Part shown: one piece after another, positions 8,255 through 24,747 of the stretch
Layout: the number at the start of each line of letters is the position of its first letter
Position numbering within the stretch: position 1 is the stretch's first letter
From: an uncultured Pseudomonadota bacterium
GTDB taxonomy: Bacteria; Oederibacteriota; Muellerivitia; Muellerivitales; Muellerivitaceae
Direction of reading: 5' to 3'
DNA: 64,000 nt
Assembly (NCBI GenBank): GCA_963836235.1
Contig: CAWIIP010000004.1
Coordinates: 480,001 to 544,000, forward strand
Position numbers and translations under genes: made by a program
The notes under the pieces: model-generated
Told to the model about the DNA's origin: nothing
The model's input: the letters and a program-made list of their open reading frames with translations, nothing else
Database searches by the model: none

Positions 8255-8570
8255 GACATCAAAAGATGAAGGATCCATTGCCCGAATGTGATGAAAGCCG
8301 GGGACGCCGGACTTTTAGGTCCGTCACGGCTAGTTTTTGGTGAGGTGCTCCTTTTCGTTGATAACCCCCCGCCAGCTTCGCGCCTTTTGGGTAACCGCCA
8401 ACCATTAAAAAACGGACAATTTATGGGCTATGAACCGCTTGGGTTAAAGCGAAAACCTTTTTTTCCTAAAATTTTATTTGACGAAAAACATTTTTTGGAA
8501 ATATCCTCCCCGCCATCAAGCTTCTTTAAAAATTTCATGGGCTTGAAATTTATTTTCTGGAGGAACGTTT

Positions 8571-9992
8571 ATGGAACCGATTTTGCTTCAAATCCCTGTC
8601 GCCAGGATAAGACCCAACCCCAACAACTCCCGCCCAGTGATTACCCACGAAATGATCGAGATCAAGAAAGCCTCACTCGAGGCCGACGGCCAGTTGGACC
8701 CCATCAAGGTTCGACCCCTCACCCAGGAGGAAAAGGCTTCCGACCCGGAGCATGACTATGAGCTCATCGGGGGCCATATCCGGCTGGAGGCCGCCAAAAG
8801 CCTGGGCTGGGAAACCTTGAGGGCTTTGGTCTTTGCCTATACCCCCGCCGAAGCCGTCCTGCCTGGCATCATGGACAACAAGGGCCAGGAAAGGCATTGG
8901 TTCTGTAAGTACCTGGATATCGAAGTCTTGTTGAAGGTATACCCGGACCTCTCCCAAAGACAGCTGGCCAACCGGCTGGAAATGAGCAAAACCGTCATAA
9001 ACGAAGGTTTAAAACTATTAAAGTTCCTTAATCCATCCGCAAGGGAGTTGGTTGTCCGCACTGCGAACATAACAGAGCCTGCTACGACCTCAAGTGTCCG
9101 CAGTGCGGACACTACGGAACCTTCAAAAGCCTCAGATGTCCGCACTGCGGACACCATGGAGACGCCAGAAGACCCATGGGAGCTGGCGGAAGCCCCCGTC
9201 TATTGCCTCATGGACCTGGCGAACCCTCAAATGTCCTTGGAAGATATCCAGGACCTCATCTTAAAAGCCTTAAAAGTGGTCATTGACCGTCAAATGAGCG
9301 AATCCCAGGTGGAAAAACTGGTCGTTTGGATTGAAAAGGGCAACAGCCCCGAAAGTTTTGAGGATAAGGCTGAGCAGGTTCCTAACGAGGACCCCAACGA
9401 CCCCCATTCCTCTTATTGGACGGCCCTCCCCCCAAACGTCAAGGTAACCCGGACCAAAAAGGGATATGAAGTGCACGCCTCCCTGGCCCATAACGAGGGA
9501 GTACCGGTGGTTTATGGGATGTTGTCGAACCTCGAACACCTCAAACTGTTGTCGAAGGAACCCCATGACCCGCAATTCCGAAGCAAGCTGGAAGGGGTGA
9601 TGGAAGAGGGGAGAAAAGCCCGGATCACCGCGAGGGAAGAGGTGGCCAAACAGGAAGCGGAACGCCAGGCGGCCCTTCAAGCGAAGGCCCAAGCCAAGGC
9701 CCGAAAGGTGGAAGCGAAAGCCCAGAAAGCTGCCGCACGGAAACAGGGTAGGCAAACAACAGCCGATTCGGCCAAGCCCACTTTGACAAATGGGGAAGGG
9801 GAGGGATTTGTGGAAAAAACATCCCGGGTAAGCCTATGGGTTCGAATCGCGGAAATACTGAAGCAAAAGACCGGCATGGATGGGGGTGATGTGGTGGATG
9901 CCGTCGAGGGCAACCTTTGGAAAGACCTTAAGTCAGCGATTAATACCGTCATTAAGCAAATCATACGACGGTTTTTGAAACGAGCGTTTTAA
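8571..9992 (+). CDS. ParB/Spo0J-like protein: N-terminal ParB domain, HTH and long C-terminal extension; no parA adjacent
   Basis: IRPNPNNSR, SLEADGQLDPIKV, YELIGGHIRLEAA and MDN motifs; HTH LSQRQLANRLEMSKTVINEGLKLL; GGAGG RBS upstream. Confidence 0.85.
   Translation: MEPILLQIPVARIRPNPNNSRPVITHEMIEIKKASLEADGQLDPIKVRPLTQEEKASDPEHDYELIGGHIRLEAAKSLGWETLRALVFAYTPAEAVLPGIMDNKGQERHWFCKYLDIEVLLKVYPDLSQRQLANRLEMSKTVINEGLKLLKFLNPSARELVVRTANITEPATTSSVRSADTTEPSKASDVRTADTMETPEDPWELAEAPVYCLMDLANPQMSLEDIQDLILKALKVVIDRQMSESQVEKLVVWIEKGNSPESFEDKAEQVPNEDPNDPHSSYWTALPPNVKVTRTKKGYEVHASLAHNEGVPVVYGMLSNLEHLKLLSKEPHDPQFRSKLEGVMEEGRKARITAREEVAKQEAERQAALQAKAQAKARKVEAKAQKAAARKQGRQTTADSAKPTLTNGEGEGFVEKTSRVSLWVRIAEILKQKTGMDGGDVVDAVEGNLWKDLKSAINTVIKQIIRRFLKRAF
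9053..9178. repeat. Three tandem 42-bp units, each starting with the 17-bp palindrome TGTCCGCA-S-TGCGGACA (candidate parS-like sites)
   Basis: Palindromes at 9053-9069 (one mismatch), 9095-9111 and 9137-9153; they encode VRTAN / VRSAD / VRTAD. Confidence 0.9.
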
Positions 9993-10047: not shown

Positions 10048-10079
10048 GCGAACCCCCGCTGAAGGGGTTCGCTCCTTTT
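10048..10079 (+). terminator. Probable intrinsic terminator after the ParB-like gene
   Basis: GCGAACCCC-7 nt-GGGGTTCGC followed by TCCTTTT. Confidence 0.55.
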
Positions 10080-10543
10080 AACCCATTGGTCCGGGTAGAA
10101 AGGATTCGCCAGGCCGGACACCGATTTTCAGAGTAGTTATAATCTTCGGAACATTCGGAAACTTCTGCTAATCAACAACCTGACGAGAAGCTTAACGAAT
10201 CAAGACGTGGCTGTCTTCGGCACTTGCATTGCGGCCTCAAAAGCGGTATCAAGATTTAATGTGGGGATAGCTTATATGCCCGGGGTGGCCTCCGGGTTTA
10301 TGGCCGCTTTGGGGGAATAAAGGGGCGTACTTGGGGTGATGGGCGGAAAGAGTAGTTGGTGTATGGTTCACGGATTGTTATCATCCCATGAGACGTTTTT
10401 CTGCCAAGCGGGACTGAACGGGTATAAATTTTTGACCTTAATGGAAAATCGAAGCGACCCATGAAAAGCGGGCGGAAAATCGCAGTACTTATTTCAGGAC
10501 CAATTTTCAAAACTGATTACCGCAGTATGAACCGGAGTTTGTC

Positions 10544-22602: not shown

Positions 22603-23655
22603 CCGAGTTCCATAAGTAAGTGCAACACTTAGTGCCTGAAGAAGGCCGCATCAATAGGATATGCGGCCATGAAAAAGAACTACAAGCATTTAAGTGTTGA
22701 GGAAAGAGATCATTTATCCGTCTTGAAGGGAAAGGGCCTCAGCCTTCGGGCCATTTCCCGTGCCTTGAAGAGGTCTCCTTCCACCCTCTCCAGGGAACTC
22801 AAGCGCAACGCTCCCCCCATCCGTTCGGGTTACTATCTGTCCCATCGGGCCCATCAACGGTATGTGACCCGCAACCAACAACGGGCTTGTCGTTTACGCC
22901 TGAAAACAAAACGAATTCGTGCCTACGTCCGTCGCCAATTGAAACGAGGCTGGTCTCCCGAACTCATTTCAGGCCGTTTAGGCCACCTGCGGCCTAAGCA
23001 AACCATTGGCCCCGAAGCCATCTACCAGTGGATTTACGCTGAGGCCACTGATCTGATTCCTTGCCTCGTCCGTCACCACCGGCGGCGGCTCACCTTCGGT
23101 CACAGCCACAGGCACGCCAAAAACCATATCCCAGGCCGAGTTTCCATCGACAAAAGGCCCAAGGTCGTCAACCAACGCAAGCAGTTCGGCCACTGGGAAA
23201 CGGACACGATGGTTTCTCGTCAAAGTAAAGTTGCTCTCCGGGCACTTGTCGAGCGTCAAAGCCGTTTTTCCAAATTGGGAAAGCTGAAACGAAAAACCGC
23301 TTCCCACATGAGTCACAGCCTCAACCGCTCTTTATGCCGCTTTCCTCAAGAGGCTCGTTTGAGCCTGACCTACGACAACGGAACCGAAAACACCAACCAC
23401 CTGGAAACCAACCATGTGCTTGGTACAAAATCCTTTTTCTGCGTTCCTTTCCACAGTTGGGAAAAAGGCACAGTGGAAAATACTATCGGTCTTGTCCGCC
23501 GCCATTTGCCTAAAAAGACCGACCTTGCTAAAGTGTCTCTCAAAGAGCTCAAAGCCATTGAAAGATGGCTTAATAACAGGCCCAAAAAATGTTTGGGCTT
23601 TCAAACTCCGGCGGAAGTCTTCCGGCGAAGTGTTGCACTTACTCCGTGAATTCGG
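22603..23655 (+). mobile_element. IS30-family insertion sequence 1
   Basis: 27-bp imperfect terminal IRs at 22603-22629 and 23629-23655 (core AGTAAGTGCAACACT); CC on both flanks fits a 2-bp duplication. Confidence 0.9.
22669..23649 (+). CDS. IS30-family DDE transposase
   Basis: N-terminal HTH, WSPELI, GHWETDT, TYDNGTE, SWEKGTVEN, LNNRPKKCLGF. Confidence 0.95.
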   Translation: MKKNYKHLSVEERDHLSVLKGKGLSLRAISRALKRSPSTLSRELKRNAPPIRSGYYLSHRAHQRYVTRNQQRACRLRLKTKRIRAYVRRQLKRGWSPELISGRLGHLRPKQTIGPEAIYQWIYAEATDLIPCLVRHHRRRLTFGHSHRHAKNHIPGRVSIDKRPKVVNQRKQFGHWETDTMVSRQSKVALRALVERQSRFSKLGKLKRKTASHMSHSLNRSLCRFPQEARLSLTYDNGTENTNHLETNHVLGTKSFFCVPFHSWEKGTVENTIGLVRRHLPKKTDLAKVSLKELKAIERWLNNRPKKCLGFQTPAEVFRRSVALTP

Positions 23656-23697
23656 CCTCTGTATTATTAGGTTTTGATCCAAACAAAAATTTCATTC

Positions 23698-24747
23698 CCC
23701 AGTTCAATAGCGAAGTGCAACACTTAGCCCCGGCAGAATCCGGGGGTTATCCTAAGTTTTATGAAACAATCCTACAAGCACCTGTCGTTGGCCGAACGTG
23801 AAGAAATCGCAGTTTGGAAGGCAGAAGGCCTCTCCATACGAGAAATCGCCCGACGCCTCGAACGTGATGTGTCCAGTGTTTCCCGAGAGTTGAAGCGTAA
23901 CGCACCACCTTTACGTCCTGGCCGTTATCTACCAGCTCGGGCTCACCTGCGATCTACCCAGCGTAACCAACTCTCTCGGACCCATCTGCGTCTCAAAAAA
24001 CCAGGGATCCGACAACATGTTTTGCGTAAGCTTCATCAGGGGTTTTCTCCCGAACAAATTGCTGGTCAGCTTCGCCTTGAGAACTCCAAACTATTCATTT
24101 CCCACGAGGCCGTCTACCAGTTCATTTATTCCGAAGCCCGAAACCTCATCCCTCTCTTGGCTCGTTCCCATCGAAAGCGGCTTCGCCGATGGCATTCGCA
24201 CAAACATCGAAAAAGCCATATTCCAGAACGAACTCCGATCACTCAACGACCCGCCATCGTGCAGACGCGGCGTCAATTTGGTCACTGGGAAGCGGACACC
24301 ATCATCTCCAGAAAAAGTAAAGCCTCCCTTTTGGTGATGGTCGAACGAAAAAGCCGCCTCGTGAAACTCGCCTGGTTGCCTCAAAAGTCCGCTTCGAAAA
24401 CACGAGCAGCTATCAATCGACGGCTCACCCTCTTTCCGAAGGGGTTACGCCGGACCATTACTTACGACAACGGCTCTGAAAACATCGAGCATCTTCAAGT
24501 TAACAATCTCTTAGGAACCCGTTCCTTTTTCTGTCTTCCTTTCCACAGTTGGGAAAAGGGAACCGTCGAAAACACTAATGGTTTGGTGCGGCGCTTCTAT
24601 CCAAAGAAAACCGATTTTGCTACCATAACTCCAGCGAACGTGCGACGTGTGGAGCGGGCTCTCAACAGCCGTCCACGCAAGTGCCTTCGCTTCAAAACGC
24701 CGGAGCAGGTCTTTCGTCTAGGTGTTGCACTTACTGGTTGAATTCAG
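23698..24747 (+). mobile_element. IS30-family insertion sequence 2 (different from element 1)
   Basis: IRs at about 23698-23723 and 24722-24747 (core AAGTGCAACAC); CATTC on both flanks. Confidence 0.85.
23761..24741 (+). CDS. IS30-family DDE transposase
   Basis: FSPEQIAG, GHWEADT, TYDNGSE, SWEKGTVENTNG, LNSRPRKCL. Confidence 0.95.
   Translation: MKQSYKHLSLAEREEIAVWKAEGLSIREIARRLERDVSSVSRELKRNAPPLRPGRYLPARAHLRSTQRNQLSRTHLRLKKPGIRQHVLRKLHQGFSPEQIAGQLRLENSKLFISHEAVYQFIYSEARNLIPLLARSHRKRLRRWHSHKHRKSHIPERTPITQRPAIVQTRRQFGHWEADTIISRKSKASLLVMVERKSRLVKLAWLPQKSASKTRAAINRRLTLFPKGLRRTITYDNGSENIEHLQVNNLLGTRSFFCLPFHSWEKGTVENTNGLVRRFYPKKTDFATITPANVRRVERALNSRPRKCLRFKTPEQVFRLGVALTG

Follow-up and report, generated by a model that had tools for sequence, protein, structure and literature searches.

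Intragenic parS sites, the sopC repeats and odd-centred clamp sites (bisS) are already known. In Bacillus subtilis, parS359 sits inside parB (spo0J), and phased binding repeats (iterons) also lie inside the gene of the lambda O protein, which differs in being a replication initiator of another fold. Orphan ParBs are described as common and mostly uncharacterised, and some orphan ParB homologs bind ATP or GTP rather than CTP (accessible part of 10.1101/2025.10.10.680097). According to the available portions of the respective papers, Noc is an orphan ParB paralog with changed specificity (PMC7383237) and has an amphipathic membrane helix (PMC8429893), sopC of the F plasmid consists of 12 repeats of 43 bp (PMC2910045), and BisD of ICEclc is an orphan ParB-like clamp, whose loading site bisS, an odd palindrome around a single centre base, is located in coding DNA, and which affects transcription at a distance (PMC12409273). 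In the accessible text of PMC8357415, strain names such as parB(mtparS) are consistent with an intragenic parS, and that of PMC13371061 deals with mRNA structure at the 5' end of parB and has no bearing on a palindrome array.

The locus described here was analysed in a window of 64,000 nucleotides (the whole stretch of DNA under analysis), which belongs to a genome of 3.97 Mb in 5 contigs, G000. The encoded protein, P0001, shows the features of the ParB-CTPase fold, namely a ParB_N domain with GxxR and a downstream Asn motif as well as a central helix-turn-helix (HTH). It resembles ParB-parS systems in the ParB fold, the HTH, the CTP motifs and the presence of a palindromic site within the gene. 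However, P0001 has neither an adjacent parA nor a ParA-binding motif, canonical parAB being located elsewhere in G000, and its palindrome is unlike the chromosomal parS, as originally predicted: it has a 17-bp, odd 8-N-8 form and not that of the 16-bp even consensus. Moreover, the site of this family is private to each paralog, whereas parS is conserved.

The best solved structural matches of P0001 in Foldseek were Noc (7nfu, E 1e-10) and ParB, although the Noc model TIGR04285 yielded 47.3 bits against a cut-off of 315, which leaves P0001 outside its membership. The helix of Noc is N-terminal, whereas P0001 starts at the ParB domain and carries its amphipathic helix at the C-terminus; Noc sites are many and chromosome-wide, whereas those of P0001 are few (8, of which 6 are intragenic), and the P0001 family has dozens of specificities. 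In common with SopB-sopC are tandem units of about four helical turns with one inverted repeat each, but sopC is a non-coding plasmid centromere beside sopAB with near-identical units, whereas the P0001 array lies in frame inside a gene and the intergenic arrays described below hold different sites. BisD-bisS, as well as KorB and VirB, share the combination of an orphan clamp with an odd palindrome within coding DNA; on the other hand, bisS is found in inrR and ssb and not in bisD, each element has one specificity, and BisD resides in a conjugative element together with a partner, BisC. Paper searches, from which subscription journals were mostly absent, retrieved no description of a self-encoded site for each paralog or of phased mixed arrays. 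The P0001 system may be regarded as a variant of the ParB-parS kind, and the associated array system may be new in kind.

The gene and its product

The P0001 gene (Table 1) sits on a 954-kb contig with housekeeping genes, within polysaccharide biosynthesis genes, and is flanked by genes for a glycosyltransferase and a membrane protein. Neither parA nor sopA adjoins it, no recombinase is found next to it, and neither terminal repeats nor a target duplication were seen at its edges. Inside the polysaccharide cluster, at 22669-24741 of the window, two different transposase-like ORFs of 326 aa each lie in tandem, which we take to be IS30-like by appearance. The GGTT...AACC motif also occurs 5' of two other paralogs, with 4 of 6 genome matches located upstream of family genes, and the -35 element of the promoter candidate is common to four paralogs.

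Table 1. Features of the P0001 locus, in positions of the window.
Feature	Position	Strand	Remarks
GGTT...AACC short inverted motif	8442..8461	+	5' edge of the stretch common to the second gene copy
Sigma-70-like promoter candidate	8478..8507	+	9/12 consensus match, by consensus only (4 found in the scan vs 2.2 expected); ~550 bp upstream of the array
Solo ParB/Noc-like gene P0001	8571..9992	+	ORF, 473 aa; Pfam ParB_N; Noc/ParB fold matches
ParB N-terminal (CTPase-fold) domain	8586..8879	+	aa 6-103; Pfam ParB_N E 3e-8
Helix-turn-helix	8955..9026	+	aa 129-152; R130 and recognition helix vary jointly with the palindrome among family members
Palindrome copy 1	9053..9069	.	7/8 pairs; +19 nt from codon R158, the most frequent family position
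Palindrome copy 2	9095..9111	.	perfect, arms reach 10; +61; reverse complement of copy 3
Palindrome copy 3	9137..9153	.	perfect; +103; reverse complement of copy 2
Remainder of DNA-binding domain	9180..9335	+	aa 204-255; restarts at the helix matching LSAGHAR of canonical ParB
C-terminal basic amphipathic helix	9936..9989	+	candidate membrane anchor (putative function)
Terminator-like hairpin	10048..10082	+	3' of the gene; consensus match only (3 found vs 4.6 expected)

In the AlphaFold2 model, which covers aa 1-270 at a mean pLDDT of 81, disorder is limited to aa 167-202, corresponding to the array, and the HTH helices span aa 129-136 and 140-152. G68-x-x-R71 (G68-H-I-R71, encoded at 8772-8783) and N103 align to the GERR and EN motifs of canonical ParB and are conserved among the representatives in 145/148 (G68), 144/149 (R71) and 148/151 (N103) cases. 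The C-terminal helix reaches a hydrophobic moment of 0.86 over the last 11 aa and ranks 10th of 456 among 18-aa windows; in addition, a transmembrane segment is predicted in 54 of 105 long relatives. A ParA-binding motif was detected in none of 152 proteins, and Walker A matches were confined to the vicinity of canonical parB loci, apart from one chance 58-aa frame. Scanning of P0001, nine locus proteins and 45 representatives revealed no nuclease or integrase domain, and Pfam matches in the C-terminal parts comprised only TPR repeats (3/45) and one weak DUF6524.

Profile alignment by HHalign to 17 canonical ParBs (probability 99.8) puts the array, about 39 inserted aa, into the turn that precedes the LSAGHAR helix, which in Caulobacter ParB bears the DNA-contacting residues G201 and R204 (available text of PMC7383237). 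Since it is inserted before this helix, the array constitutes a loop inside the DNA-binding domain. The original prediction that the array doubles as a flexible protein linker is thereby not supported in the sense of a link between domains, the insertion being placed in the turn between two helices of a single domain; nor do the homologs support it, since their loop is short and holds just one site in most of them.

The three-copy palindrome array

The existence of three palindrome copies, whose starts are 42 and 42 bp apart, was confirmed, and the whole window contains just these 3 matches at up to 3 mismatches, compared to 0.22 expected, a number reached in 0 of 100 shuffles. The array also lies just 3' of the HTH codons, as had been proposed, with the centre of copy 1 at codon 164. 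Likewise, the 17-bp copies differ at two positions only. The centre base is C, G and C in copies 1, 2 and 3, respectively, which entails a Thr/Ser change, and a single G>A exchange in the right arm of copy 1 converts Asp to Asn, so that copies 2 and 3 are the only perfect palindromes. The change of the centre base thus indeed alters the amino acid, but a single Thr/Ser change is by itself weak evidence for selection on DNA symmetry, for which it had been cited. As to the 25-bp spacers, their drift is evident, yet 14 of 25 positions are still identical between neighbouring stretches, a relatedness that an old tandem duplication would be expected to leave. In four contig sets obtained from sequencing runs, which covered the array only in pieces, no length variant was seen, and no two-copy array of this site was detected among the genome contigs searched.

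The period of 42 nt recurs in 7 of 7 genes with tandem sites, although the palindromes themselves are unrelated in most of them; an eighth such gene was noticed in G043. Among 152 proteins, repeats in the loop show a 14-aa period in 7 of 10 cases and a 7-aa period in one. Moreover, of 26 perfect sites that lie elsewhere than at +19, 20 are separated from this position by an integer multiple of 21 nt. Since 42 bp equal four helical turns as well as 14 codons, duplications of this length preserve both frame and helical face. The centre bases of neighbouring copies are complementary in 7 of 13 pairs and related by a transition in 1, which fits inversion by template switching, a process that evens out arms and inverts spacers in coding DNA (according to the accessible part of PMC8604942).

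The intragenic palindrome across the family

In a search of 41 genomes, matches were obtained in 30, comprising 14 relatives with family genes and others with one or two weak ParB-type matches; no family gene was found in the same-genus genome G001 with the query used. The family genes are solo and scattered, and range from none to more than 10 per genome. The proteins closest to P0001 are five others at E <=0.001 with 33-57% identity; metagenomes contributed 2 distant related loci, and viral contigs none. Anchoring succeeded for 81 of 85 HTH matches, and 77 of these remained in the analysis; the rows excluded were 4 canonical ParB rows that had no anchor, L037 and the near-duplicates L008, L041 and L081.

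Within +10 to +130 of the anchor, an odd 8-N-8 palindrome is perfect in 45 of 67 domains with a normal HTH and has at least 7 of 8 pairs in 59 of 67; 7 of 67 are devoid of a site. By comparison, perfect palindromes occur upstream in 0/67 and downstream in 1/65 controls, and perfect even palindromes in 1/67. When the peptides were kept and the codons resampled, 0.43 perfect palindromes were expected against the 45 of 67 observed, which substantiates the proposal that selection acts on DNA symmetry rather than on the peptide. In agreement with this, the peptides at the site are unrelated across the family while the symmetry of the DNA is kept, and a check of the homologs for the opposite case, a kept peptide with broken symmetry, did not refute the proposal. 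The 53 perfect sites comprise 40 distinct half-sites, and the number of counted copies varies from one to four per gene, a point that had been put forward for checking. Position +19 is occupied by 35 of 78 sites, and the centre falls on the second codon position in 78 of 84 sites, a phase that in-frame insertions and deletions would preserve.

A subgroup with an aberrant HTH contains perfect palindromes in 0 of 10 domains, a count to be read with the caveat that membership was assigned from the peptide found where the site would lie; most members of the subgroup have lost GxxR and two keep it. Six of the aberrant domains are second domains of tandem proteins, the first domain of which bears a site in five. 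In the tandem proteins L015, L052, L055, L067, L068 and L071, the first ParB-HTH unit is intact, and the second unit has lost GxxR, normal HTH and palindrome.

Co-variation of the HTH and the site

Co-variation of the palindrome with the HTH had been put forward for checking, and both a test of helix and site distances and a test of residue 130 against base -7 support it. In 57 genes, the distance between recognition helices predicts that between sites once the ParB_N tree and the remainder of the HTH region are accounted for (partial r 0.335, p 0.001); this remainder, outside the recognition helix, is also correlated (partial r 0.174). Arg130 is accompanied by G at -7 in 26 of 28 cases, compared to 5 of 29 for the remaining residues. 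Counted over well-supported branches, there are 6 independent pairs, of which 5.5 change in the same way and 0 in the opposite one, with p 0.03 in a sign test that is uncorrected; the rule was picked post hoc as the strongest among 256 column-base cells, and neither of two control columns displayed an association. The tree itself is weak, as 8 of 55 branches are starred, and two short rows and the long-branch L090 were left out. Further pairings are less clear: C at -4 is present in 8 of 9 cases with an acidic residue 141, compared to 11 of 48 otherwise (p 0.06), P0001 itself running against this rule with Thr141 and C at -4, and Gln130 with T gave p 0.5.

That specificity and site are inherited together is also supported, inasmuch as distant backbones were seen to share both a helix motif and its site, namely L048, L087 and L088 as well as L065 and L079. 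Between the sister genes L059 and L069, both residue 141 and base -4 are different. With no more than 60-100 nt between HTH and site, however, recombination could by itself keep the two linked and may contribute to their co-variation.

The second copy and the paralogs

G000 harbours 10 family genes, one fragment and one canonical parAB pair. A perfect 8-N-8 palindrome is located at the matching position in 8 of the 10 genes, a ninth has 5/8 pairs at this position and the tenth has none; all palindromes differ among the paralogs, except for that of a second copy of the P0001 gene. This second copy (C2:814165) is 99% identical over window positions 8442-9716 and 82% at the 3' end, a pattern which suggests that promoter, HTH and array were recently converted or recombined as one block. 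The pattern of the two half-site variants of the P0001 gene matches 8 times in G000, 6 times inside the two gene copies and twice in intergenic DNA (C2:1300117 and C4:953174), and has 0 matches in 31 other genomes of the order. The assumption of a self-contained one-gene module therefore does not hold, in view of the second gene copy and the two intergenic site variants. The site patterns of four relatives, too, matched only genomes bearing family genes.

Two paralogs are degraded: at G000:C4:607,281-609,100 a paralog is split by a frameshift with its perfect site kept, and at G000:C2:1,851,200-1,851,870 internal fragments are left around the site. Only two parS-like matches occur in G000 (C2:1,421,720 and 1,424,706), and an exact copy of the site of paralog C1:251289 is found at C2:1,426,427, 1.7 kb from a parS-like match. 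The 28-bp cassette palindromes of G000 are absent within 3 kb of either copy of the P0001 gene. Partial 28-bp cassette palindromes directly follow the stop codons of two paralogs (G000:C1:370,990 and C2:1,205,560), for which reason some family members may travel as cassettes.

Intergenic mixed arrays

Beyond the genes, 24 intergenic arrays with 138 8-N-8 sites were encountered in 9 related genomes by seeded searches, which used family site patterns for a first set and a flank motif for a second; 136 of the 138 sites are unique within their own array. In both sets taken together, 100 of 115 spacings fall within 2 bp of multiples of about 10.5 bp. The first set (12 clusters and one pair) exhibits a period peak at 10.45 bp over 56 spacings, with a phasing R of 0.705 compared to 0.42 as the largest of 2000 random sets, and 50 of 56 spacings are within 2 bp of a 10.5 multiple against 21 expected. 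This count excludes arrays inside genes, one unphased cluster of L046 and a further 7 clusters of G000, several of them unphased, to which no family site had led. For the second set, 39 flank-motif matches led to 20 fetched regions, of which 9 contained arrays, 2 family genes and 9 neither; these 9 regions held 12 clusters, with 50 of 59 spacings within 2 bp of phase and no even-centred cluster.

Part of this DNA resembles the family genes. In the first set, 13 out of 67 sites have a 24-nt flank that agrees with the flank of a gene site at >=16 of 24 positions, up to 23/24, compared to 1 of 335 in shuffles, a control that is lenient for A-rich flanks. Array pieces of 40-90 nt around a site are homologous to family genes and 70-90% identical to the site-bearing segment, which in G000 has extragenic copies at 3 places, compared to none for an N-terminal control segment. 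Exact matches of array sites to a gene site of the own genome number 4 (0.43 by chance), those within one change 11 (4.8 by chance), and 56 of 67 array sites are at least 2 changes away from every detected gene site of the same genome; these counts refer to incomplete assemblies in which genes turn over.

Among the arrays of G000, C4:953,090-953,480 (L107) includes a variant of the P0001 site, C4:277,010-277,370 contains tandem family-gene pieces with different cores, and C2:2,047,085-2,047,145 has a site identical to that of paralog C1:140936. Several extragenic sites or arrays are adjoined by direct repeats 8-17 bp long, which occur in both orientations (G000:C2:1,299,990-1,300,115 and C2:1,132,950-1,133,020; L117, L133 and L134). 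The arrays L120, L122, L133 and L141, from different genomes, share a non-palindromic 8-bp motif between the sites, which is frequent genome-wide with 143 occurrences in G000. A non-coding run of related imperfect palindromes with a period of about 43-44 bp was seen at G005:C79:22,887-23,030 (L144). By analogy only, the mixed arrays recall those of CRISPR systems in being non-coding rows of mostly unique short pieces, some from mobile genes; unlike CRISPR arrays, they lack a constant repeat, and their units are palindromes at helical-turn spacing.

Proposed mechanism and rival explanations

From the sequence evidence at hand, the three palindromes are likely to be the binding and loading sites of the protein encoded by the same gene. 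A symmetric site of fixed size with a read-out that follows the HTH points to dimeric proteins on double-stranded DNA, as do the loss of the site with HTH decay and the helical phasing in non-coding DNA, and the dimeric binder would most simply be the gene's own product. With good confidence, a dimer would place one HTH on each half-site, Arg130 touching the G near the outer end. The subsequent steps are proposed because of the analogy to Noc, BisD and ParB (PMC8429893 and PMC12409273, in their accessible parts): CTP would fairly probably close the clamp, which would then slide off the site and coat the locus; more tentatively, at somewhat less than an even chance, spreading over the promoter 550 bp upstream may limit the clamp's own expression, and the C-terminal helix may tie the locus to the membrane in a Noc-like manner. 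The peptide of the array would represent a tolerated loop insertion.

It is improbable that the palindrome is not only a dock but the site of a DNA transaction, be it cleavage, recombination or capture, which moves the gene and writes 40-90-nt pieces into the arrays, although such a role would be compatible with self-binding. The scattered solo genes, numbering none to more than 10 per genome and accompanied by no recombinase in the case of P0001, would agree with it, as would the near-uniqueness of the sites within each array (136/138), the 70-90% identity of array units to the site-bearing gene segment and the threefold extragenic copying of this segment in G000, as opposed to none of the control segment. 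Yet neither a nuclease nor an integrase domain was found in P0001, the 9 locus proteins or the 45 representatives, the gene edges bear no terminal repeats or target duplication, a gene-like flank (>=16/24) is confined to 13 of 67 array sites, and ectopic recombination followed by selection for binding would yield equal arrays. A still smaller likelihood is assigned to a purely mutational origin, in which template switching in an unconstrained loop generates palindromes that no protein reads. The process is known to homogenise arms and invert spacers in coding DNA (PMC8604942, as above), and neighbouring copies are often mutual inversions, as their centre bases indicate (complementary in 7 of 13 pairs, transition in 1), but it predicts neither a fixed position nor sharp arms of 8-9 bp around one centre base, nor the near-absence of palindromes from the variable downstream linkers (1/65), their loss with HTH decay, the co-variation with the HTH and the 10.5-bp phasing.

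Two further explanations are highly unlikely. A function as hairpins in mRNA or single strands, for instance in translation pausing within the DNA-binding domain, might be read from the folding of the array RNA (z -4.25, copy 2 paired with copy 3), which is however expected of any repeated palindrome; moreover, the innermost pair, which a hairpin could not close, is still complementary in 66 of 78 sites, its mismatches exhibit no wobble bias (7 of G-T type, 5 of A-C type), and like sites form helically phased arrays in non-coding DNA. The least credible proposal is that the repeat was selected as a flexible-linker peptide with incidental DNA symmetry: the model is disordered over aa 167-202, but the peptides are unrelated across the family despite the kept symmetry, codon resampling accounts for 0.43 of 67, and in most members the loop is short, with just one site.

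If the palindromes are the address of the encoded clamp, the many paralogs of a cell would each need a private one, so that HTH and site would diverge jointly, and template switching would probably change both arms at once. A newcomer clamp whose address is new would not be repressed by the residents, which would explain the diversity of sites. The intergenic arrays would offer secondary docking places to numerous family members, having been copied in part from genes and held in phase; they would be decoys or hubs that selection for binding maintains, or else result from active capture. It is a speculative and on balance unlikely extension that the family consists of mobile, self-addressed clamps with addresses in an arms race, and that the arrays are a helically phased address book, a docking-based record of residents. 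Under this extension, the host or a hitch-hiking element would capture the site-bearing piece of each clamp gene met, and protein-DNA docking would replace RNA guides.

Implications

Work on how ParB clamps change specificity has so far relied largely on a single natural pair, ParB and Noc. The family described here would add at least 40 natural protein-site pairs with a readable contact rule, and since each gene names its own likely target, the recognition code is directly testable; orthogonal clamps could further serve for labelling or tethering of DNA loci. The 42-bp period in unrelated members, together with the 10.5-bp phasing of the arrays, suggests that neighbouring clamps interact on one helix face, a long-debated point for sopC. 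In addition, the mixed arrays may reveal a new way for genomes to record or control resident selfish genes. Self-encoded palindromes may, moreover, extend to further DNA-binding families, given that an ORF6N-domain gene next to a paralog (G000:C1:143,076-143,684, L003) carries its own intragenic odd palindrome with 12-bp arms.
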